A stretch of 64,000 bases of DNA. Origin: a bacterium. GTDB lineage: Bacteria > Patescibacteriota > Minisyncoccia > Phycocordibacterales > Zambryskibacteraceae. The notes under the pieces were generated by a model that saw nothing but the letters and a program-made list of their open reading frames with translations, had not been told where the DNA came from and did no database searches. Below are positions 2,727 through 28,800 of this stretch, one piece after another. The position numbers and the translations under genes are program-made. The stretch is taken from contig JAHFOF010000002.1 of the NCBI GenBank assembly GCA_023266935.1, forward strand, positions 4,469 to 68,468. The letters are read 5' to 3'. The first letter of the stretch is position 1. The number at the start of each line of letters is the position of its first letter.

Positions 2727-4265
2727 ATGAGTTTAACTTTATCTAAAACTGATTTTATTTCATATAGAGAGTGTGCGAAAAATGTCTGGGTCAAATGGCA
2801 CAAACCTGGTATATATAGCAATTTTCCTATTTCTGACTTTGAAAGATCTCTCGGAGAGATGGGAAATGAGGTAGAAAAACTGGCTCAAGGAATGTTTTCT
2901 GAAGGAATCTTGATAAAAGGTAGAGGACCAGAGGCTCAAAGAAAAACAAAAAAAATAATCAAGGAGGAGACACCGGCTATTTTTCAAGCCGTGTTTGAGA
3001 CAACCAAATATCTTGCTGCGACTGATGTTTTAAAGTGGAACAACGAAAATAAATCTTATGATTTGTATGAAATCAAAATGTCCTCAACAGAAGAAAGTGA
3101 CACAAATGGAGAAAAGAAAATAAACAAAAAGAAAGAAGAGCAGTATGAATACGACCTAGCTTTTCAAACCAATGTGGTTGAAAAAAGTGGAATTAAATTA
3201 AATAAAAAATATTTGGTTAGATTGAACAAGGATTATGTCCGCATGGGCGAGCTTGATTTTAATGAAGGTGCTTTGTTTATTATCGAAGATAAAACTGAAA
3301 CCGTAGATAATATCCGCAGTGAAGTAGAAAATGAGATGGAGGATGCCTATGAATATTTATCCAAAGAGAGAGAGCCTGTTGGACCTTGTTCTTGTTTTTA
3401 TAAGGGTCGTTCAGCACATTGCACCACCTTCTCGTACAATAACCAAACGATGAATGTTCCAGAATATAGTGTCCATGATTTGAACAGGATCGGTCAAAGT
3501 AAAAAATACCTCACAGAATTACTCGATTCAGGGATTTTACATATCAAGGATGTACCTATAGACGATCGATTAAAAAACAAAAAACTTAATCAGGTATTGG
3601 TTCATAAATCTGGCAAACCGATAATCAATGGGGAAACTCTCAAAGAAGAATTAGATCAATTAACTTTTCCTCTATATTTTCTCGACTACGAGACATACCC
3701 AACTGCCATTCCTCCATTCAGTGGATATAAGCCGTATCAACATATTGTTTTTCAATATTCTCTTCATGTTTTAGAATCCGCTGATTCTGTGCCCCAACAT
3801 TATGAATGCCTAATTTTGGATGGAGATCCAGCTGAAAGGATTGCCGAGAGTTTGCATAAAAATATTGGTAATAAAGGCAGTCTCATCTCTTGGTATGCAA
3901 CATTTGAAAACTCTAGAAATAAAGAGTTGGGCAGAATGTTACCTCAATACAAAAAGTTTTTTGATGATTTAATCGCCCGAACATATGACCTAATGAAAAT
4001 CGTCGAAGACCAACATTATGTTCACCCAGATTTCCACGGTCGTTCATCCATAAAAAAAGTTTTGCCCGCATTGATAAAAGATTTGTCTTATAAGACCTTA
4101 GAAATACAAAGCGGAACTGAAGCTATAGAGGCCTATAAACAAATCACCACTGGAGAACTCAAAGAAAAAGAAGTAGATAAAAAAAGAAAAGAGATGCTCG
4201 AATATTGCAAACTCGATACAGAAGCAATGCTTCGTTTGTGGAGATTTTTTAAAGGTTTGGTTTAA
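2727..4265 (+). CDS. DUF2779-like nuclease. It combines an N-terminal PD-(D/E)xK/Cas4-like module with a Cys cluster and a C-terminal DEDDy 3'-5' exonuclease domain.
   Basis: The N-terminus SKTDFISYRECAKNVW resembles DUF2779/RecB-like starts, and a Cys cluster PCSCFYKGRSAHC follows. The C-terminal half carries Exo I LDYET and Exo III YCKLDTEAMLRLW. Confidence 0.5.
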   Translation: MSLTLSKTDFISYRECAKNVWVKWHKPGIYSNFPISDFERSLGEMGNEVEKLAQGMFSEGILIKGRGPEAQRKTKKIIKEETPAIFQAVFETTKYLAATDVLKWNNENKSYDLYEIKMSSTEESDTNGEKKINKKKEEQYEYDLAFQTNVVEKSGIKLNKKYLVRLNKDYVRMGELDFNEGALFIIEDKTETVDNIRSEVENEMEDAYEYLSKEREPVGPCSCFYKGRSAHCTTFSYNNQTMNVPEYSVHDLNRIGQSKKYLTELLDSGILHIKDVPIDDRLKNKKLNQVLVHKSGKPIINGETLKEELDQLTFPLYFLDYETYPTAIPPFSGYKPYQHIVFQYSLHVLESADSVPQHYECLILDGDPAERIAESLHKNIGNKGSLISWYATFENSRNKELGRMLPQYKKFFDDLIARTYDLMKIVEDQHYVHPDFHGRSSIKKVLPALIKDLSYKTLEIQSGTEAIEAYKQITTGELKEKEVDKKRKEMLEYCKLDTEAMLRLWRFFKGLV

Positions 4266-4270
4266 CTCTT

Positions 4271-4299
4271 GACTTTATTATCTTATTATGCTAATATAT
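4271..4299 (+). promoter_or_regulatory. Sigma70-type promoter TTGACT-17-TAATAT upstream of the small ORF
   Basis: -35 TTGACT, a 17-nt spacer and -10 TAATAT, about 40 nt upstream of AGGAG-N7-ATG. Confidence 0.5.
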
Positions 4300-4341
4300 A
4301 AGTAGTCAAACACACTGTCTTTCTTCTTCAGGAGAACACTG

Positions 4342-4521
4342 ATGTGGCACTGGATCTTTACCCATCTGACGTATCACCAGTTCGTGTTTGTTTGCGTTTA
4401 CCTCGTGGTCATGACGTTCGTGCTTAGGCACAAGATGCTCGCTGATCGACGACTCCGGATGCTGGGCGAGGTGCCTCGCGAGATTGGTGAGGTTTTTCAT
4501 TGGGACGATCACAGAGCGTAG
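4342..4521 (+). CDS. Small His/Trp-rich membrane protein, 59 aa (MWHWIFTHLTYHQFVFVCVYLVVMTFVL...), GC-enriched; below the track's 60-aa cutoff
   Basis: Consensus promoter, SD AGGAG 7 nt upstream, one predicted TM helix, and a perfect intrinsic terminator immediately downstream. Local GC (~55%) is well above the flanks. Confidence 0.45.
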   Translation: MWHWIFTHLTYHQFVFVCVYLVVMTFVLRHKMLADRRLRMLGEVPREIGEVFHWDDHRA

Positions 4522-4540
4522 TCCCAAGCTCGAAGACAAA

Positions 4541-4580
4541 AAGGGCGGGTCCAAACAGATCCGCCCTTTCTTCTATTTTT
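4541..4580. terminator. Bidirectional intrinsic terminator (stem AAGGGCGG/CCGCCCTT, 12-nt loop, T-run). It serves the small ORF on the plus strand and rpoD on the minus strand.
   Basis: A perfect 8-bp GC stem read directly. It is followed by TCTTCTATTTTT on the plus strand and a T-run on the minus strand, 2 nt from the rpoD stop. Confidence 0.6.
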
Positions 4581-5808
4581 AATATCCTCTCAACCTATTT
4601 ATTTTGTCGTGTTGACGAATTTTTTCATGAGCTTTAGCTTCGATTTGTCTAATACGTTCTCGAGTGACACCAAAAACTTTACCCACTTCTTCGAGGGTGT
4701 GAGTATATCCATCTGTCAATCCGTGTCTCATTTCTAGAATTTTTCTTTCTTTCGGAGGAAGGTCATTTAAGATTTCTTTCACTTGATCTTGAATAATCCG
4801 ACGCGATGATTCCATGTCTGGAGAAATAATTTTATCATCTGCGAGGAAATCCCCAAGTTTGGATTTTCCATCATCTCCATCATCTCCCACGGGGCTTTCG
4901 AGCGACACAGTCGATTGGTCTATCTTTTCAATTTGATACACTTTCTCAACATCAAGGTTCATTTCAAGCGCTACTTCTTCAGCCAAAGGTTCCCGACCGA
5001 GGTCTTGGGTTAACCTGCGCACAACTTGTTTATATTTAGCAATCGTTTCTACCATGTGCACTGGTACACGAATCGTTCGAGATTGATCCGCGAGAGCACG
5101 AGTAATGGCTTGCCTTATCCACCATGTGGCATAAGTAGAAAATTTGTAACCCTTGGTCCAATCAAACTTATCGACTGCCTTAAACAACCCAAGATTCCCT
5201 TCTTGGATAAGATCGAGGAGAGTAAGATCTGGACTTCGATTCGCATATTTCTTGGCTATAGAAACTACCAAACGCAAGTTCGCCTTGGCCAATAGATTTT
5301 TCGCTTCTTCATCACCTTGTTCAATTCTTTTGGCTAATTCTTTCTCCATAGAACCTGGGATAAGTGGGTATTGCCCGATTTCTTTCAAATACATCTGAAT
5401 AGAATCATAAGCCGAGTCAGATTTGTTATATGAATACTTTTTACCAGTTTCTTCAACAGGCATTTCAAGTAATCCCCCTCCCTCGAGGATATCTATCCCC
5501 AGAGCATTCAAACGTTCATACAACTCATCCAAAAAGATGATGTTGAGCTCAATATTCGGAAATTCTTTTAAAATTTCATCATAAGTAACAAAACCTTTAT
5601 CCTTGCCTCTTTTAACCAAACGTTCAACTTTAATCAGTTCGTCTGTGGATTTTTTAGTAACTTTGGCTCTGATTGGTTTAATTATTTTCTTAGAAACTTT
5701 TTTATTTATCTTTTTTGAAACCTTCTTTCTTGAAACGGGCTTTCTCTTGGCTACTTTTTTAGAGTTGGCCTTGTGCCCTTTATTTTTTTGTTTTTTAGTT
5801 TTCTTCAT
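4579..5808 (-). CDS. rpoD: RNA polymerase sigma-70 factor RpoD with a Lys-rich N-terminal extension
   Basis: Regions 2-4 are recognisable ([16 protein letters not shown], region 4 [22 protein letters not shown]). Confidence 0.9.
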
Positions 5809-20553: not shown

Positions 20554-22773
20554 TTATTTAGCCACCTCGACTGCTTGGGTGAATTCGATAGAGAGAAGTT
20601 TGGAGATGCCGGTTGAACCCATAGTCACACCGTATATTATTCCCGCTCGACTCATGGTTTCTCTGTTGTGTGTGATTAAAATTAGTTGAGAATGTTTTGA
20701 AAGTTTTTCTACCAAATCTCCATAAATCCTCGAATTGGCTTCGTCGAGCGCAGCATCTGTCTCATCAAGAATAATAAAAGGGGGAGGATTCACCGCAGAA
20801 ATAGCAAACAATAACGCAATAGATGTTAAGGCTCTCTCTCCACCAGAAAGCATCATCAAACCCTTTATCTTCTTCCTCGGCAAATTCACGGCGATGTCTA
20901 ACCCTTCTTCAACAATCTCCTCATCATCTAAGGCATCTTCAACCATCTCTGTCTCCCCTTCTTCGAGCATTACTTCGGCCTTGCGTTTTTTATCTTTAGT
21001 CAAAATGAGTCTTGCATCTCCCCCGCCGAACATTGAACTAAACAGTTCACCAAACTCTTTATTAATTTTAGTAATACCAGAAGAAAATTCTACAGCCAAT
21101 CTTTCTTCCAAATCTTTCACTAATGTTTTTAAAGATTCGGCAGATTTATCCAAATCCAAAAGTTCTCGAGCGAGGAACTGGTCACGCTCGCTCACATCTT
21201 TGTACTCCTTCATCACTTCTCCTGACCCCACTACACCCGAATCTTCCAGACGAATCTTTAGTTTCCCTATCTCACGTTTCTTCTCTTCTTGAACATTTCT
21301 ATTTTCTTCTAAAATATTAATCGCGGTTTTAAAATCTTTAAAATGTAAGGCGTCTGCCCCTACAAGTGCTCCAACCTCAGTCATTTCCCGCTTAAATTCT
21401 TCATCTTCTTTCTTGAGTATCTCTTCTTTGGATTTAATCAGATTCAGTTTTGAAATGAGTTCATTTTCTTCGGACATAATTCTGAATACGGCTTTCTCTG
21501 CATCTCGACTCGAATCTTTTTCCATCTCAATCCCCTTCTTTAATTCTTCGTATCGCACACGAAGGGCCTGCTCCTTTGCTCCAGCTGTCTCAATTTCTTT
21601 TTCTATATTTTCCTTTTCTTTAATTAATTCTCTAACAGATTTTTCAGCATCAAGAAGAACAGAAGAATCCGCAGAATACTTTTGATTTTTAATAAACTCT
21701 TTTATCTTATTAAAAACATCCACCAATGTTCCGAGGAGTGACACTTCTGAATATAAATCTTCTATATCCTTTAACCGAACAAGCTTATGTTCGTCTGAAG
21801 TAGCTAACTCTTTTTGCTTTCTAATAATTCTCTCTTCTGCGTCAATCGAACCTTCGACCTTGCCCAGATTTCTAACCAAAGCATCTTTATGAACTCTCAC
21901 CCCACTCATCTCTGACTCAAGGTTCAAAACCAAATAATCTTTCTTTTCTTCTTTGGCCACATCTTCAAGAATTTTCCTTGCATCAGCTAATTCTTTTGAA
22001 AGTTTCTGGAGTTGTTCATCGATTGGTTTTTTCTCCTCACCTGACATCTTCTTCGATAAACTAATATACTGGTCTTCATGATAAAAATAATCTTTAGCCA
22101 ACTCTATAAGACTCGTTTTCATGCTTTCCATCTTCTCTAGTTTCTCAACTTGTTTATGAAGAAACTTTAAATGAGGAGCAATTTCTTTTCTCAACAACTC
22201 TACTTGAGCAATGTTCTCAAAAGTTTTTTTTAATTTACGCTCACTTTCTAATCTTTTGTATTGATACAGACGAAGTCCGAGGGCATCTTCTATCATCGCT
22301 TTGCGTTCCTTTGTAGAAGCATTGAGTATCTTATCTGCTTCTCCTTGGGAAATAATGTGGTGCCCCGATGCACCGATGTGTGCTTGGAGAAGAAGCTCGA
22401 CCACATCTTTCAAGCGAACAGTAGAACCATTTATAGAATAATCATTTACCCCGTCTCGATGCACCACACGTTCGATAACTACTTCAGGAAAGTCTACAGC
22501 GAAGGTTTTGTCTTTATTATCAAACGTCACCTTAACTGATGCCCTGTTTGCCCTAGATTCTCCTCCGGCTCCATTAAAGATGAGGTCTTCTCCTTTCTTG
22601 CCTCGCAGAGATTTGATTGATTGCTCACCCAAAACAAATCTAAAGGCTTCAGCCACATTTGATTTACCAGAACCATTTGGTCCAACTATAGAAGAGATGG
22701 GGGAATTAAATTCGAGAGTACTCAACTTGGCAAACGATTTAAATCCCGAAAGTTCGATTGATTTTAAATACAT
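20554..22773 (-). CDS. smc: SMC-family chromosome segregation ATPase (short form, 739 aa)
   Basis: Walker A GPNGSGKSN at the N-terminus, a long coiled-coil, ABC signature LSGGERALTSIAL, and Walker B/D-loop ILDETDAALD. Confidence 0.75.
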   Translation of the reverse strand: MYLKSIELSGFKSFAKLSTLEFNSPISSIVGPNGSGKSNVAEAFRFVLGEQSIKSLRGKKGEDLIFNGAGGESRANRASVKVTFDNKDKTFAVDFPEVVIERVVHRDGVNDYSINGSTVRLKDVVELLLQAHIGASGHHIISQGEADKILNASTKERKAMIEDALGLRLYQYKRLESERKLKKTFENIAQVELLRKEIAPHLKFLHKQVEKLEKMESMKTSLIELAKDYFYHEDQYISLSKKMSGEEKKPIDEQLQKLSKELADARKILEDVAKEEKKDYLVLNLESEMSGVRVHKDALVRNLGKVEGSIDAEERIIRKQKELATSDEHKLVRLKDIEDLYSEVSLLGTLVDVFNKIKEFIKNQKYSADSSVLLDAEKSVRELIKEKENIEKEIETAGAKEQALRVRYEELKKGIEMEKDSSRDAEKAVFRIMSEENELISKLNLIKSKEEILKKEDEEFKREMTEVGALVGADALHFKDFKTAINILEENRNVQEEKKREIGKLKIRLEDSGVVGSGEVMKEYKDVSERDQFLARELLDLDKSAESLKTLVKDLEERLAVEFSSGITKINKEFGELFSSMFGGGDARLILTKDKKRKAEVMLEEGETEMVEDALDDEEIVEEGLDIAVNLPRKKIKGLMMLSGGERALTSIALLFAISAVNPPPFIILDETDAALDEANSRIYGDLVEKLSKHSQLILITHNRETMSRAGIIYGVTMGSTGISKLLSIEFTQAVEVAK

Positions 22774-22797: not shown

Positions 22798-23502
22798 TTA
22801 ATCCCAACCCTTATTTTTTAATGCATTCCGAGCCGCTTCTTGTTCTGCGTCTTGTTTAGATTTTCCATCACCTTGTCCGACCAATTCATTTCCTATATAA
22901 ACTCCAATAGTAAATTTTTTATCGTGATCTGGACCAGATTCGTATAAAGTTTTGTATGAAGGGGTGGTGTTCTCGTGCTCTTGCGCTTTTTCTTGAAATA
23001 GACTTTTGGCATCTATCCACGTTCCTTTCTCTATAATTCCTTCAGTTAATGGGGTAATGTGAGCAAGGATAAATTTTTCTGCCGAATCAAATCCTTGGTC
23101 CATATAAATCGCACCGATAAAGGCTTCGAGAGTATTCGCAAGGATATATTGTCTAGCTCGTCCGTTATCTTTTGATTCTCCTTTTGAGAGAAGGAGAAAA
23201 TCATTGGCACCAAGTTTCTGAGCGACCTCTGCGCAAGTATCCGCATTCACCAATGCTGAACGAAGAGAAGTTAATTCTCCTTCGTTCATTTCTGGAAATT
23301 TTTTGTATAAATAATTTGTGATAGCCAGTTCTAAAACTGCATCTCCGAGGAATTCGAGTCGTTCGTTGTGTTCTAAACCAGAAGCACGATTCTCATTTAT
23401 ATATGAACGGTGAATAAACGCCTGTTTCAAAAGCGCCTTATCTTTGAATTCAACCCCCGCTGTTTCTTCAAATTTACTGAAATCCATCGCTTGTATATAC
23501 AC
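22798..23502 (-). CDS. rnc: Ribonuclease III
   Basis: RNase III signature ERLEFLGDAVLEL and a C-terminal dsRBD. Confidence 0.9.
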   Translation of the reverse strand: MYIQAMDFSKFEETAGVEFKDKALLKQAFIHRSYINENRASGLEHNERLEFLGDAVLELAITNYLYKKFPEMNEGELTSLRSALVNADTCAEVAQKLGANDFLLLSKGESKDNGRARQYILANTLEAFIGAIYMDQGFDSAEKFILAHITPLTEGIIEKGTWIDAKSLFQEKAQEHENTTPSYKTLYESGPDHDKKFTIGVYIGNELVGQGDGKSKQDAEQEAARNALKNKGWD

Positions 23503-24417
23503 TTATGAATGCTTTTCTGCAAGGAGAGTAATCGCCTTGGTTACAATGGGCAAAATATCGTCATAAAAATTTAAATCCAAAATATCTGCTAACTTGAACC
23601 ATCGAACATCGTCCAAACCTCCTTTTTCTTCCTTTTTTTCCAGAGTTAAATCGTGGTATTCTGCTTCAGCCAAAAAATAAGTAATTTGTTTTTTAATTTT
23701 ACCTTTTTCTGGATGAAAAGTGGTGTAAGCATTTTCTCCTAACTTTACCCCAACTTTTATTGGTATCCCGATCTCAAGCGGAACTTTTCGCACTAAACAT
23801 GCTTCATTGGTTTCTCCTTCAGCCAATTTTCCTTTGGTTAATGTCCAGTGCCCAAAAACATCATGAACTAAAGCCAAATAAATATTTCCTTCATGATGGG
23901 CAAAGACAACGGCTCCAGCCAACCTTTCGAGTGGAAGCTGGTCGTCTGGGATATTGCCATACTTTTTCTTCGGACGAGGTTGGTCGTCTTTGCCTGGCTC
24001 ACCCATTTCTTTATAAACTGCGCCCAACACGCCGTTCACAAACCTACCAGAAGTGTCCCCACCAAAGCTCTTGGCAAGCTCTATGGCTTCGTTTATGGCC
24101 ACTTTTGGTGGAACTTCTTCCCTATCTGAAAAAAGTAATTCTGCTAAGCCGATACGCAAAATATTTCTATCAACAATCGAAATTTTCTCTAATGGCCAAT
24201 CCGGAGCTGCTTTTTCTATCAATAAATCTATATCTTTTTGTTTATCTACAACCGAATAAAGAAGCGCTTCCATAAACGGCTTATCGTTCGAACCACCAGC
24301 AAATTCTTTAAAATTACGCTCAAATATTTTATCTATCTTATTGTTTCTACTAGTATCAAAATCCCACTCAAAGAGTGTTTGGAGAACCACCGATCGTGAA
24401 AGGTGTCTGTTGGCCAT
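23503..24417 (-). CDS. nusB: NusB-like antitermination factor fused to a C-terminal Nudix hydrolase domain
   Basis: N-terminal NusB motifs (RSVVLQTLFEWDF, NILRIGLAELLF). The C-terminal Nudix box GKLAEGETNEACLVRKVPLEIGI fits Gx5Ex7REVxEExGI. Confidence 0.7.
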   Translation of the reverse strand: MANRHLSRSVVLQTLFEWDFDTSRNNKIDKIFERNFKEFAGGSNDKPFMEALLYSVVDKQKDIDLLIEKAAPDWPLEKISIVDRNILRIGLAELLFSDREEVPPKVAINEAIELAKSFGGDTSGRFVNGVLGAVYKEMGEPGKDDQPRPKKKYGNIPDDQLPLERLAGAVVFAHHEGNIYLALVHDVFGHWTLTKGKLAEGETNEACLVRKVPLEIGIPIKVGVKLGENAYTTFHPEKGKIKKQITYFLAEAEYHDLTLEKKEEKGGLDDVRWFKLADILDLNFYDDILPIVTKAITLLAEKHS

Positions 24418-24642
24418 ATTAAAAAGAACAAAAAACTTTTTATTTTGTTTTGCCGACCTTGCGTCCTCGATACATACCTGTCTTTGGGTCCATTCTGTGT
24501 CGAAGATGCGTGCTGGTACCAGCCTTGGTTAAGCTTGGTTTAGCTAGGCCATGATGAGATCGACGTTGTTTCGTCTGTGATCTCGTATGTCTCATTCGTA
24601 CTACCATAAACCAAGCTTATCAAAGATATTTGTAAATGAAAA

Positions 24643-24677
24643 GCCCCGCTCAGACCAAAGTCTTCGCGGGGCCAACT
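24643..24677 (-). terminator. Intrinsic terminator for the Nudix gene (GCCCCGC..GCGGGGC stem with an inner AGAC/GTCT stem, then T-run on the minus strand)
   Basis: A 7+4 bp hairpin overlaps the last codons of 24650..25150 and is followed on the minus strand by TTTTCATTT. Confidence 0.5.
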
Positions 24678-25150
24678 GCTTCCTCTCCAAACTTCTCGGC
24701 AAAATACTTGTGTACACCGAGAAGAAAGTTGAGATGGAACTTGTTTCTGTCAGTGTTGAAAACCTTCTTCAACGCATCATCGAGCGAAATCCCATACGGC
24801 CGTGACAGAGACGAATTTCCATCGATGAGAGTAGCTGTCCGAAGCGTTCCTCTGCAACCAGAACGAGGGATAACAAACCCCTCCTTCAGATGTCCATTCT
24901 TGTCCCTGCGTGGACGATAGACGGAAATCGGTTTAACTCTGTGTTTAACCGAAAGCCCTGTCTCTTGCTTCAACTCCCGCAGAACAGTATCCACGGTTGT
25001 TTCTCCATCTTCACTTCTACCTCCAGGACATTTGCTTTGTATCTTTTGGTCAAATCCTGGATTTTGGGGGGTGGCATCAATGAAAAGAAGATGAACCACC
25101 CCATTCTCAAGCCACCAAATGGCGACGGTTGAGAAATGGTTCTGGTTCAT
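24650..25150 (-). CDS. Nudix hydrolase
   Basis: Nudix box GGRSEDGETTVDTVLRELKQETGL. Confidence 0.7.
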   Translation of the reverse strand: MNQNHFSTVAIWWLENGVVHLLFIDATPQNPGFDQKIQSKCPGGRSEDGETTVDTVLRELKQETGLSVKHRVKPISVYRPRRDKNGHLKEGFVIPRSGCRGTLRTATLIDGNSSLSRPYGISLDDALKKVFNTDRNKFHLNFLLGVHKYFAEKFGEEAVGPAKTLV

Positions 25151-25226
25151 GCTTTTTCTCCTCTGGGTTGGCCCATATTGGGTATTTCTAATTCTCCTTA
25201 CATACTAGCACAAGATAAGTAAAAAG

Positions 25227-25805
25227 TCAAATGTTCTTCAAAAAGCTTTTCCTATGAACCATACTTGCTCCAAATTTGCGTATCGTCTTCCTATGATCTA
25301 GTGTTCCATAACCTTTGTGTTTATGGAAATTATATTCTGGATATTTTTTGGAAAGTTTAGTCATGTATATGTCTCGAGTAACCTTGGCACAAATTGAAGC
25401 TAGAGAAATAATCGCTACCTTCTCATCCCCTTTTATAATCGTCTTTTGGTTTTTAAAATTCTTCGGAGCTTTTATTCCTCCGTCCAGAAATATTTTCGAG
25501 TCTCGTGGAACTTTTAATTTTATCAAACATTTCTTAATCCCTAGATTTATCGCATAAACGATTCCCTTTTTATCAATAATTTTTTCTGAAATCAAACTCA
25601 CTGCAAACTCAAGTTCCCCTTTTTTCTGCATTTCTTTAGCCAAAGAGAACCAAAATTCTCGTTCTTTGAGTTTGAGCTGTTTTGAATCTTTAATTCCCCT
25701 AAGAAATTTTTTATTGGATGAATCGACTAGTTTAACTGCCCCCACTGACACTGGGCCAGCGAGTGGTCCGCGCCCAGCTTCGTCTATACCGACTATATAT
25801 CTCAT
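25227..25805 (-). CDS. rnhB: Ribonuclease HII
   Basis: IVGIDEAGRGPLAGPV catalytic motif. The start is placed at the internal Met (MRYIVGIDEAG). Confidence 0.85.
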   Translation of the reverse strand: MRYIVGIDEAGRGPLAGPVSVGAVKLVDSSNKKFLRGIKDSKQLKLKEREFWFSLAKEMQKKGELEFAVSLISEKIIDKKGIVYAINLGIKKCLIKLKVPRDSKIFLDGGIKAPKNFKNQKTIIKGDEKVAIISLASICAKVTRDIYMTKLSKKYPEYNFHKHKGYGTLDHRKTIRKFGASMVHRKSFLKNI

Positions 25806-25823
25806 TTGTATTATAATGACCTT

Positions 25824-28800
25824 ATGAATCGATTTGTCCATCTCCACACTCACTCTCACTACTCTCTTTTGGAAGCTCTACCCAAGATTCCAGACTTGGT
25901 AAAAAAAGCCAAAGATTTAGAGATGAAAGCTCTCGCCCTAACTGACTCTGGAAACATGTACGGAGCAATAGAATTTTATAAAGAATGCGTAGATGAAGGA
26001 ATCAAACCGATTATCGGAGTTGATGCTTATGTGGCCAAGAGAACCAGATTTGATAAAGAAGCTCGCATAGACAATACTCGATCCCGCCTTGTTTTGTTAG
26101 CCGAAAATGAGACTGGTTATAAAAACTTGATTAAACTCGTCACCGCTTCTCACCTTGAAGGATTTTATTATAAACCTCGAATCGATAGGGATTTAATAGA
26201 AAAATATCATGAAGGATTGATCTGTATTTATCCATCGTTTGCTAAGGAGCGCAGTGAAGAAATAATCTCTTGGTATAAAAACATCTTTGGTGCAGATAAA
26301 TTTTTTATAGAAATTACTCATCATCCAGAAATTAATGGCCATGAAGAGAGACAAAAAGAACTAATCGAATTAGCCAAAAAAACCCAGACGAAATTGGTCG
26401 CTTCTCACGATGTGTATTATCTAGAACCCGAAGACAAGCCGGCTAGAGATACGATGCTTTCTATCCAAGGCCATATGGGTAAAGAAATTACGAGTAGTTT
26501 TGATGGAAATGAGGAAAACTTTTCGTTCATTAGCTCAGAAATAGCAGAAGAATATTTTAAACCCATACCAGAGGCTTTAGAAAATACAAAAAAAATCGCA
26601 GATATGTGCAACCTCGAACTTAAACTTGGTTCGTGGGTCTTCCCAGAATTCGTAGTAGAAAAAGGCAAAACTTATAACGAAGCTCTAGCTGATTTGGTAG
26701 AACAAGGATATAAAAATAAAAGTGTAGAAAAAACTAAAGAAAATGAAGAAAGGGCGAAATACGAATTAAGAATTATTGGAGAAAAAGGTTATTCACCTTA
26801 CTTTCTCGCGGTGGCTGACCTCTTGAGTCATGCTCGTAAGGTTGGGATACTAACCAACACCAGAGGTTCGGCTGCGGGTTCGTTTGTCTCATATCTTTGT
26901 GGTATCACCACTGTAGATCCGATTAAATACGATTTACCTTTTGAACGTTTTTTAAATCCTGATCGCCCATCCCCACCCGATATAGATATAGACATCGCCG
27001 ATAATCGTCGAGATGAAATGATTGAATATGCCAAGGATAAATACGGAGCTGATCGAGTAGCTCAAATCGGAACATTTGGAACCATGATGGCTCGTGGAGC
27101 AGTCAGAGATGTTGCTCGTGCGATGAATTTCGCTTACATAATCGGAGACAGAATTGCCAAACTGATACCCTTAGGTGCACAGGGATTTCCTATGACTCTT
27201 GACCGAGCCATGAATGAAAATCCTGATTTAAAAAAACTATACGACGAAGATGAAGATACGAGAACCATAATAAACATGGCCAAAAAGATCGAGGGTTGCG
27301 CTCGACACATTTCTGTTCATGCTGCGGGTGTGGTCATCGCTCCGGGACCACTCGTGGATTATTGTCCACTCCAATTTGATACAAAGGGTGACAACAAAAT
27401 TATTACCCAATACGACATGTATTCCATCGAAGAAGCTGGACTTTTAAAATTCGATTTTCTGGGCATAAAAAACCTTTCCATTCTCGCAGATGCAGTTGAA
27501 CGTATCAAAAAAATTGAGAACAAAGAAATTGATATAGAAAGGATTCCACTCGATGATAAAAAAACTTTTGAAATGTTGAGTCGAGGAGAGACCGAAGGAA
27601 CGTTTCAGTTAAATGGACCAGGTATGACCAAAGCACTGATAGAACTCAAACCGAACAAAATCTTTGATATCAATGTGATGGTCGCCCTTTATCGTCCGGG
27701 CCCGATGGACAACATCAATGAATACATCGCTCGCAAACACGGCAAGAAAAAAATCTCTTATCTCCATCCAAGTATGAAAAAATTTTTAGACAAGACTTAT
27801 GGAGTGCTCGTGTATCAAGACGATCTTTTGATGACGGCTATTGAAGTCGCTGGATATACCTGGGGCGAAGTGGATAAATTTCGTAAGGCAGTTGGAAAGA
27901 AAATACCAAAGGAGATGGCCAAACAACATGTCATTTTCGTCGAGGGATGTATGACTCACGGTAAAATGACTAAACAAAAAGCCGAGGAACTTTGGGATTT
28001 ATTTGAACCGTTTCAAGGCTACGGTTTCAACAAAGCGCATGCTGCGAGCTATGGCTTCACGGCATATCAAACGGCTTATCTTAAAGCCAATTTTCCTGCG
28101 ATATATATGTCCGCAGTCCTAACCGCTGATTCAGGGGACGTGGAAAGAATCGGGGTAATGATTAATGAATGTAAAAAAATGGGCATTAGTGTGCTTCCTC
28201 CTTCGGTGAATGAGAGCTTTTCACAATTTACAGTCATCAAAGATGAGGATAATGTAAATCAGCCTTATAAAATCCGTTTTGGATTAGTCACCATAAAAAA
28301 CTTTGGGCAAGGTATTTCTACCTCGATCATCGAAGAACGCAAGAAAAACGGAAAGTTTAAATCCTTGGCTGATTTTCTAGATCGAATAAAAGATAAAAAT
28401 TTAAATAAGAAATCACTTGAAGCCTTGATTCGGAGTGGAGCGATGGATGAGTTTGGTGACCGTGGAGTGTTGGATGCAAACATCGAAGGACTATTGTCTT
28501 ATAATCGTGAACATTTAAATCGTCCAAAAGATCAGGATTCGCTTTTTGGTTCGATGTCTGATACTTCAACCATTCCTACTCTCCGCCTTTCAGACGCCTC
28601 GCCTGCAACTCAAACAGAAAAATTAAAATGGGAAAAAGAATTACTCGGTTTGTATATTTCTGGTCATCCACTTGAGGCCTACAAAGATAGATTGAGTAAT
28701 AATCAAACAAACATAAAAAAACTGGTTGATTTAAAAGAGGGTGACCTCGTAGTCATCGGAGGTATGATCGAAGATATTCGAGATGTTTTGACCAAGAAAA

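Follow-up and report, generated by a model that had tools for sequence, protein, structure and literature searches.

A conserved fusion of the transcription factor NusB with a Nudix-fold domain in Parcubacteria

Introduction

A 64,000-nucleotide stretch of genome from a bacterium of the Zambryskibacteraceae (contig JAHFOF010000002.1 of assembly GCA_023266935.1, positions 4,469 to 68,468; hereafter the window) encodes a 304-residue protein in which NusB is joined to a Nudix-fold domain descended from the neighborhood of the diadenosine tetraphosphate (Ap4A) hydrolases. To our knowledge NusB, one of the most highly conserved and most thoroughly studied transcription factors, has been a small protein of a single domain wherever it was examined. 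Judged by its sequence, the window protein is the NusB of its lineage, and we slightly favor the reading in which the attached domain is a tethered module for binding or scaffolding and has little hydrolytic activity, if any. No paper mentioning a NusB–Nudix fusion was found, a clan-wide survey of Nudix proteins included. Such proteins are already present in public databases, annotated plainly as NusB; it is the architecture itself that is undescribed in the literature found.

Results

Domain layout of the fusion protein

The gene and its parts lie as follows; the rows for the gene and its two domains rest on the cited family models, all above their cut-offs.

23503..24417, minus strand: nusB::nudix gene, 304 residues plus stop, an open reading frame (ORF) matching PF01029, PF00293 and TIGR01951
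24004..24417, minus strand: NusB domain, residues 1–138 (PF01029; aligning over its full length with solved NusB chains of 139–156 residues)
23923..24003, minus strand: Lys/Pro-rich linker, residues 139–165 (EPGKDDQPRPKKKYGN...), delimited by low model confidence
23506..23922, minus strand: Ap4A-hydrolase-like Nudix-fold domain, residues 166–304 (PF00293, profile matches in the PDB, Foldseek)
23764..23832, minus strand: degenerate Nudix box, motif GKLAEGETNEACLVRKVPLEIGI, read from the sequence

A preliminary description of this DNA had proposed a NusB N-terminal half followed by a Nudix domain, and both halves are borne out. Residues 7–136 match PF01029 with 118.4 bits (cut-off 23.1) and the protein reaches 125.1 bits for the NusB equivalog TIGR01951 (cut-off 88.35), while residues 169–284 match PF00293 with 40.9 bits (cut-off 21.1), and Pfam, the structure model and Foldseek agree on a Nudix fold at the C-terminus. 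A public protein, P0001, is identical to the whole 304-residue sequence. The structure was modeled with AlphaFold (AF2) on an alignment of 104 sequences, giving a mean predicted local distance difference test score (pLDDT) of 84 and a predicted template modeling score (pTM) of 0.49; this model supersedes an earlier one from 17 sequences, in which the Nudix half had a pLDDT of ~40. The NusB half is modeled as all-helical with a pLDDT of ~85–90 over residues 1–138 and, in Foldseek comparisons against the PDB, superimposes on the NusB of the NusB–NusE–BoxA complex (3r2c/3r2d) with a TM-score of 0.88–0.89 and a root-mean-square deviation (rmsd) of 1.9 Å. More than 400 matches were obtained at E ≤ 0.001, nearly all those listed for the Nudix half being Nudix structures, and none of the Foldseek matches holds both domains in one solved chain. 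Between the two confident domains, residues 141–154 fall below a pLDDT of 50. This stretch and the low pTM suggest that two folded domains are joined by a flexible tether of ~25 residues, the sequence of which hardly varies in the close family and is only partially conserved in the wider one.

The first 138 residues thus correspond to a full-length canonical NusB, such as those of Escherichia coli, Aquifex and Thermotoga (3d3b, 3r2c, 1tzt), by equivalog score, motifs and fold. Canonical NusB is, however, a stand-alone protein of 139–156 residues, whereas the window protein adds a linker and a Nudix domain that together comprise ~165 residues. A partial parallel is found in the 16S rRNA 5-methylcytosine methyltransferase RsmB/Sun, where an RNA-binding module of the NusB fold likewise precedes an enzyme fold that acts on rRNA. 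There the partner is an S-adenosylmethionine-dependent methyltransferase, and RsmB models match the NusB half of the window protein only weakly (51 bits against an RsmB cut-off of 319).

The fusion is genuine and widespread

Three surveys bear on the reality of the fusion. The best database matches comprised the 120 closest homologues (74–100% identity), drawn from NCBI, JGI, ENA and Logan assemblies; a profile built from diverse members retrieved another 120 proteins (56–66% identity); and a search of GTDB species representatives, one genome each, detected relatives in at least 569 genomes, the best 80 of which underlie all counts of gene order and species loci given here. Both domains are present in all 240 proteins of the first two sets, and the best 80 species relatives all span residues 1 to ~302. 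The scores of the second 120 fused proteins are nearly flat (431–442 bits), which implies thousands of clusters of the fused protein. The named hosts are Parcubacteria, Paceibacteria, Zambryskibacteria, Kaiserbacteria, Wolfebacteria, Nomurabacteria, Moranbacteria and Minisyncoccia, and the fusion can be traced down to ~30% identity, where Pfam is blind to the Nudix half.

The doubt raised at the outset, that a frameshift or assembly error might have united two separate genes, can be dismissed, since the uninterrupted fused ORF recurs across hundreds of independent NCBI, JGI, ENA and Logan assemblies; we attach a negligible probability to an artefact. The sole frameshift encountered is of the opposite kind, a public contig of ~1 kb (L087) in which the fused gene is split.

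When the Nudix domain alone served as the query, only 889 of 1.84 billion representative proteins matched at E ≤ 0.001. Of the top 150 of these, the long proteins are fused to NusB and most short proteins are fragments, and the subfamily appears essentially never to occur unfused. A stand-alone ancestor was considered and rejected: the short matches of high identity sit on contigs of ~1 kb or less, and the one apparently stand-alone representative that was inspected is the split gene on L087.

Some database labels disagree with the distribution above. A contig labeled Nitrospira sp. (JBEBJM010000013.1, L038) carries the Parcubacteria-type fusion and gene order and is probably mis-binned. Many records with CAY... 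and CAZ... accessions, tagged "uncultured Candidatus Saccharibacteria", show the same fusion and order, and their labels look more generic than accurate.

The Nudix box is degenerate but the domain is under constraint

The Nudix box is incomplete, its REUxEE core reading RKVPLE. Set against the consensus GX5EX7REUXEEXGU, the box runs G196-KLAEG-E202-TNEACLV-R210-K211-V212-P213-L214-E215-I216-G217-I218, so that K211 and L214 stand in place of the first and second glutamates of REUxEE, and E202, R210 and E215 are kept. Among the 120 close homologues, 75 have RK[VI]PxE (or RAVPLE) and 42 the canonical RE.xEE; the canonical share is 42 of 117 in this set (~36%) and 20 of the 64 classifiable species loci. 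Across diverse representatives and species loci, many lineages have A, G, V, K, S or N in place of the first REUxEE glutamate, and some very distant members retain the domain without a recognizable box. E215 alone among the REUxEE glutamates is nearly invariant in 33 diverse fused representatives.

Elsewhere in the domain, D186, W191, T192, K195, Y231, Y247, G267, W273, L282 and Y285 reach 90% conservation or more in a set of 38 sequences with a mean column identity of 37%. The mean pairwise identity of degenerate-type Nudix domains (77.7%) is close to that of the canonical type (80.1%) and to that of the degenerate type's own NusB domains (78.6%). The replacement residues are themselves near-fixed in the degenerate type (K211 in 74 of 75, V212 in 74 of 75, P213 in 75 of 75, L214 in 70 of 75), whereas position 213 varies freely in homologues with a canonical box. 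The degenerate Nudix domain and its replacement residues are under strong constraint, a sign of purifying selection, and are not decaying.

The two box types are interspersed among relatives of at least 74% identity. In neighbor-joining (NJ) trees, with RNase III plus SMC as a proxy for the species, the box state changes 13 times on the tree of the whole protein, 24 times on that of the NusB domain (34 with permuted labels), 10 times on that of the Nudix domain (35 permuted) and 12 times on that of RNase III plus SMC (14.4 permuted). The four-residue state KVPL recurs in at least three places among relatives with REAEEE. A single origin of the degenerate box finds no support in these NJ trees, all four of which mix the box types; the mixing could reflect exchange of the Nudix segment by recombination, a long-standing polymorphism, repeated change, or poor resolution of trees built from short sequences.

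The fused domain is related to Ap4A hydrolases

By sequence and modeled fold, the fused Nudix domain is closest to the Ap4A/Ap6A hydrolases and MutT1. Its nearest solved chains by sequence are mycobacterial MutT1 (a diadenosine polyphosphatase), the Caenorhabditis elegans Ap4A hydrolase and Chlamydia CT771. A family profile ranked against the PDB gives the Aquifex Ap4A hydrolase, CT771, the C. elegans Ap4A hydrolase, Ndx1 (an Ap6A hydrolase), Dcp2 and human NUDT2, the matches including 3i7u (1.4e-8), 4ilq and 1kt9. Foldseek places the Aquifex enzyme (3i7u) at ranks 1–2 with a TM-score of 0.87–0.89 and an rmsd of 2.2–2.4 Å, followed by MutT1, the Nudix domain of NrtR, CT771, 1ktg and Ndx1. In the alignment, the motifs HWTxxKG and K-x-V-x-Y-[FW]-L-A are common to the fused domain and the C. 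elegans enzyme. The hydrolases of Ap4A and other diadenosine polyphosphates (ApnA; 3i7u, which is Aquifex aq_158, 1ktg, CT771, NUDT2, Ndx1, MutT1) are thus kin of the window domain by profile, by fold (TM-score up to 0.89) and by the motifs HWTxxKG and KxVxY[FW]LA. They differ in having a complete REUxEE and in standing alone or having other partners, whereas the window domain reads RKVPLE and is fused to NusB.

The label "RppH-type" that had been given to the domain is not supported: it scores 18.3 bits against NF001936 (cut-off 118), its nearest relatives being ApnA hydrolases, MutT1 and Dcp2, and the fused protein has no match to TIGR02705 (YtkD). RppH (E. coli NudH; B. subtilis YtkD) does resemble the fused domain in its Nudix fold, in its possible RNA 5′-end substrate and in being kin of the ApnA hydrolases, but the RppH family models remain far below their cut-offs and the catalytic glutamates of the window protein are incomplete.

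Nudix domains that bind without hydrolysis offer the closest functional precedents. The NUDT9-H domain of human TRPM2, whose box reads RILRQE, binds ADP-ribose and is enzymatically inactive, whereas invertebrate TRPM2 orthologues with canonical boxes are active and a mutant with AILGEE retains ~1% of kcat (PMC6461439). The same two glutamate positions are lost in NUDT9-H as in the window protein, the ligand pocket being retained, and the TRPM2 orthologues are similarly divided between active canonical and inactive vestigial boxes. CF Im25 (NUDT21), a component of an RNA-processing complex, lacks two box glutamates and binds Ap4A and ATP without hydrolyzing them (PMC2425470); the replaced glutamates and the retained pocket are shared with the window protein, and the work of CF Im25 in an RNA-processing machine and its binding of Ap4A recall the role proposed for the latter. 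In both cases the partners are different, namely an ion channel and a eukaryotic 3′-end cleavage factor, and the domains belong to other Nudix subfamilies.

These data bear directly on the idea, present in the preliminary description, that the protein is an active pyrophosphohydrolase. In its full form, an RppH-like or ApnA-type enzyme would be delivered by NusB to nascent RNA, where it would convert 5′-triphosphate or Np4-capped ends into 5′-monophosphates and couple antitermination to 5′-end processing. The domain does lie in the Ap4A-hydrolase/NUDT2 neighborhood, and NUDT2, which is similar to RppH, trims 5′-triphosphate RNA to monophosphate RNA (PMC8616924). Canonical boxes in close homologues, the E202, R210 and E215 of the window protein and the RNase III encoded next door also agree with an active enzyme. 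In the window protein, however, only one of the three REUxEE glutamates is left; equivalent changes in NUDT9 and TRPM2 abolish activity or lower it ~100-fold; the loss of the first glutamate across many lineages, the box-less distant members and the low scores of the RppH models point the same way. With K211 and L214 in place of glutamates, activity is doubtful for the window protein. Active coupling is a live rival for the canonical-box orthologues and less likely for the window protein, and as a general explanation we consider it rather unlikely.

The region upstream encodes ribosomal protein L32

The segment directly upstream of the fusion gene contains the following features.

24440..24607, minus strand: rpmF, ribosomal protein L32, 55 residues (PF01783 and TIGR01031 above cut-off; preceding the fusion gene in 78 of 80 loci)
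24614..24622, minus strand: extended −10 promoter-like element TGATAAGCT (TGnTAnnnT), 6 nt before the rpmF ATG
24530..24619, minus strand: 13-bp inverted repeat, arms TAAGCTTGGTTTA (24619..24607) and TAAACCAAGCTTA (24542..24530), from the sequence
24423..24430, minus strand: BoxA-like motif TGTTCTTT, in the 22-nt spacer between rpmF and nusB, 5 nt before the nusB ATG

Positions 24418..24640 had been described as a GC-enriched leader without an ORF, typical of a regulatory leader or small RNA. They hold the 55-residue L32 ORF (33.4 bits for PF01783, cut-off 21.3; 34.3 bits for TIGR01031, cut-off 22.6), and their GC content (0.399) equals that of the window as a whole (0.402), with 0.464 for rpmF taken by itself. 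The inverted repeats that were reported do exist, the outer one as a perfect 13-bp repeat and the nested one as GAGATC..GACG/CGTC..GATCTC. A 232-nt segment is more stable than its shuffles (z = −3.74), the source of the stability being the 13-bp repeat together with the nested GAGATC/GATCTC pairing.

A structured cis-regulatory leader or small RNA controlling nusB would explain this stability and the perfect repeat. The comparison with relatives speaks otherwise. Equivalent 161-nt segments at 78 loci have a mean fold z of −0.68, with 10 loci below −2, and both arms of the outer stem are altered without compensation in genomes whose fusion protein is 84–86% identical. In the outer helix 62% of the cells pair, and the G–C core pairs in the window's own sequence only. 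The inner 6-bp helix is almost invariant across relatives because its sequence belongs to two Arg-Ser codon pairs that are conserved in L32. An Rfam scan of the region returned no family at the gathering threshold or at E ≤ 1. The segment consists of rpmF coding sequence and promoter, with the 5′ arm of the 13-bp stem overlapping the −10 element and its spacer, and we judge the genome-specific stem to be incidental and the regulatory leader very improbable.

The −10 element itself recurs. In the window and in 18 of the 18 closest loci with an rpmF match (among L001–L019), TGnTAnnnT precedes the rpmF ATG by 6 nt (by 7 nt in one case), and farther loci have TATAAT-like hexamers 7–10 nt ahead of this ATG. 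We infer that rpmF is transcribed as a leaderless or almost leaderless mRNA and that most of the 5′ arm of the stem is promoter DNA left untranscribed. The rpmF-nusB-rnc operon as a whole is probably transcribed from this promoter directly ahead of rpmF.

Gene calls for rpmF are uneven in public assemblies: those of L081–L083 and L086 skip the 55-residue gene, and those of L084, L085, L088 and L089 include L32. In the distant lineages L088 and L089 the L32 gene is called as 79 and 105 residues, compared with 55 in the window, and these calls could represent an extended L32 or a mis-called start.

A BoxA-like motif precedes the fusion gene

The motif TGTTCTTT ahead of nusB resembles what we take to be the core of BoxA (E. 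coli rrn TGCTCTTTAACAA; B. subtilis TGTTCTTTGAAAA), its 3′ half (AACAA) being weak in the window. The pattern TG[CT]TCTTT occurs in 26 of 88 loci, mostly in the close subclade, and in 23 of these 26 its distance from the start codon is 0–5 nt, against a background of 0.54% of 60-nt windows. The motif is often tandem (GTTCTTT-TGTTCTTT) and abuts the start codon in related genomes (L001–L019, L081–L086, L039, L057, L075, L080), nearly all close-subclade loci among them, and some distant loci have fuller matches (L080, TGTTCTTTAACTAAA; L075, GTTCTTTAAACAA). There is no overall enrichment in the window (7 occurrences against 10.3 expected), where, among 59 ORFs of 120 residues or more, the fusion gene alone has the motif upstream. 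Neither the window nor the loci retrieved contain an rRNA operon. In E. coli, suhB is repressed by NusB/NusE bound to BoxA beside its translation start (PMC5725501). By analogy with suhB, the motif is a plausible candidate for a NusB/S10 autoregulatory site of nusB::nudix.

Gene neighborhood

In order of transcription on the minus strand, the locus comprises RNase HII, a 166-residue Nudix protein, the 55-residue ORF, the fusion ORF, RNase III and SMC. The remaining features of the locus are as follows.

25227..25859, minus strand: rnhB (RNase HII), ORF
25230..25202, minus strand: promoter-like site of the stand-alone Nudix gene
24650..25150, minus strand: stand-alone MutT-like Nudix gene, 166 residues, box RELKQE (PF00293, 33.5 bits, residues 9–81 only)
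24634..24672, minus strand: intrinsic-terminator-like hairpin and T-run at the end of the stand-alone Nudix gene, read from the sequence
22798..23502, minus strand: rnc (RNase III; Pfam Ribonuclease_3 and dsrm), directly 3′ of the fusion gene
20554..22773, minus strand: smc, ORF

In 78 of the 80 loci the L32 gene directly precedes the fusion gene, and in 78 RNase III directly follows it; SMC usually comes after RNase III, with RNase HII farther upstream. Members whose Nudix half is only ~30% identical keep the order dnaE(−), rnhB-rpmF-nusB::X-rnc-smc. The arrangement rnhB-rpmF-nusB::nudix-rnc-smc is a conserved Parcubacteria gene cluster.

The rnc ORF as listed begins with GTG straight after the nusB stop (window 23485..23502, minus strand). 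RNase III relatives align from residue 2–7 onward, and the true start may be the ATG at 23487 (MDFSKFEE...). In the closest relative (the P0002 genomes; L081–L083, about 4206..5240), a 344-residue gene that matches HATPase_c (weakly) and DUF4325 separates rnc from smc; the window has no such gene.

The second Nudix gene that had been noticed upstream on the same strand, with a terminator of its own, is confirmed by its PF00293 match and by the presence of both hairpin and T-run (GCCCCGC-GA-AGAC-TTTG-GTCT-GA-GCGGGGC, then TTTTCATTT). A simple terminator scan overlooked the hairpin at 24672..24634 because its 16-nt loop is interrupted. Relatives, too, have a GC-rich stem followed by a T-run ahead of the rpmF promoter. 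The stand-alone gene itself is detectable in 8 of the 80 species loci, has a GC content at third codon positions of 0.48 compared with 0.29–0.34 for its neighbors, and encodes a protein that resembles MutT-type proteins in the box region alone, its box RELKQE being likewise non-canonical. The gene was apparently acquired on its own, as a variable insertion between rnhB and rpmF that does not belong to the conserved operon. The possibility that it is a duplicate or compensating partner of the fused domain was rejected, as the two show no sequence similarity and the gene adjoins fusions of both box types.

Discussion

Our preferred reading is that the Nudix domain of the window protein is a tethered module that binds rather than turns over its ligand, because the pocket is conserved while two catalytic glutamates with a metal-binding or base role, at positions 211 and 214, are gone. 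By homology, the NusB half would bind BoxA RNA together with S10 (NusE) and join the rRNA antitermination complex, and the Lys/Pro-rich linker would tether to it a Nudix domain descended from enzymes of the Ap4A-hydrolase/NUDT2 type. The module would then ride on the NusB–S10–BoxA complex and hold a nucleotide-like ligand, for which the candidates are an ApnA-type dinucleotide and the 5′ tri- or tetraphosphate or Np4-capped end of the nascent rRNA leader; alternatively, it may contact another subunit of the complex. Orthologues with the canonical RE.xEE may hydrolyze the same ligand. A functional analogy for the attached domain is provided by SuhB, which has the inositol monophosphatase fold and is described as a structural subunit of the E. 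coli NusB/NusE/BoxA complex (PMC6614797, PMC6614801). SuhB is likewise an enzyme fold that serves structurally beside NusB, although its fold is unrelated and it is a separate polypeptide.

Several observations weigh against this reading. The window protein retains E202, R210 and E215, the last of which aligns with what we take to be E57 of MutT, the glutamate most damaging when mutated. Some Nudix enzymes have their general base outside the box, and residual or altered chemistry in the window protein is possible. The persistence of canonical boxes, in the proportions given above for close homologues and species loci, means that part of the clade, at the least, has a use for hydrolysis. The proximity of rnc, finally, is circumstantial as evidence for a role in rRNA synthesis.

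The domain might also have nothing to do with transcription, being an ordinary house-cleaning nucleotide hydrolase, or a remnant of one, that a streamlined genome has joined to NusB. Reduced genomes often contain gene fusions, and the modeled flexible linker and uncertain domain orientation fit independent domains. The subfamily is, however, essentially never found unfused among the representative proteins searched, the fusion has been kept across at least 569 species and down to ~30% identity, and the domain is as conserved as NusB after the loss of catalytic residues, which a house-cleaning enzyme would not tolerate. We therefore regard this explanation as improbable.

A more specific proposal, which we advance tentatively and think rather less probable than the general one of a binding module, is that the NusB-tethered domain acts as a ligand sensor or 5′-end clamp in Parcubacteria rRNA antitermination, binding ApnA/NpnN or the Np4-capped or triphosphate end of the leader. 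If so, the function of the Nus complex would be tied to nucleotide or stress status, and so, by way of the BoxA-like sequence beside the nusB start, would the synthesis of NusB. Close relatives would then carry either a hydrolytic form (RE.xEE) or a non-hydrolytic one (RKVPLE), much as in TRPM2.

In practical terms, public annotation of these proteins says only "NusB", and the adjoining rpmF is often missed by gene callers. The active-looking and inactive-looking natural versions at ~75% identity form a ready pair for biochemical tests. A whole class of ultra-small uncultivated bacteria has a nucleotide-binding enzyme fold permanently joined to NusB, and the catalytic residues of this fold have been discarded repeatedly while the domain was kept. 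This suggests an extra input to rRNA transcription or processing, which may be a nucleotide signal, an RNA 5′ end, or a substitute for a missing subunit of the complex.

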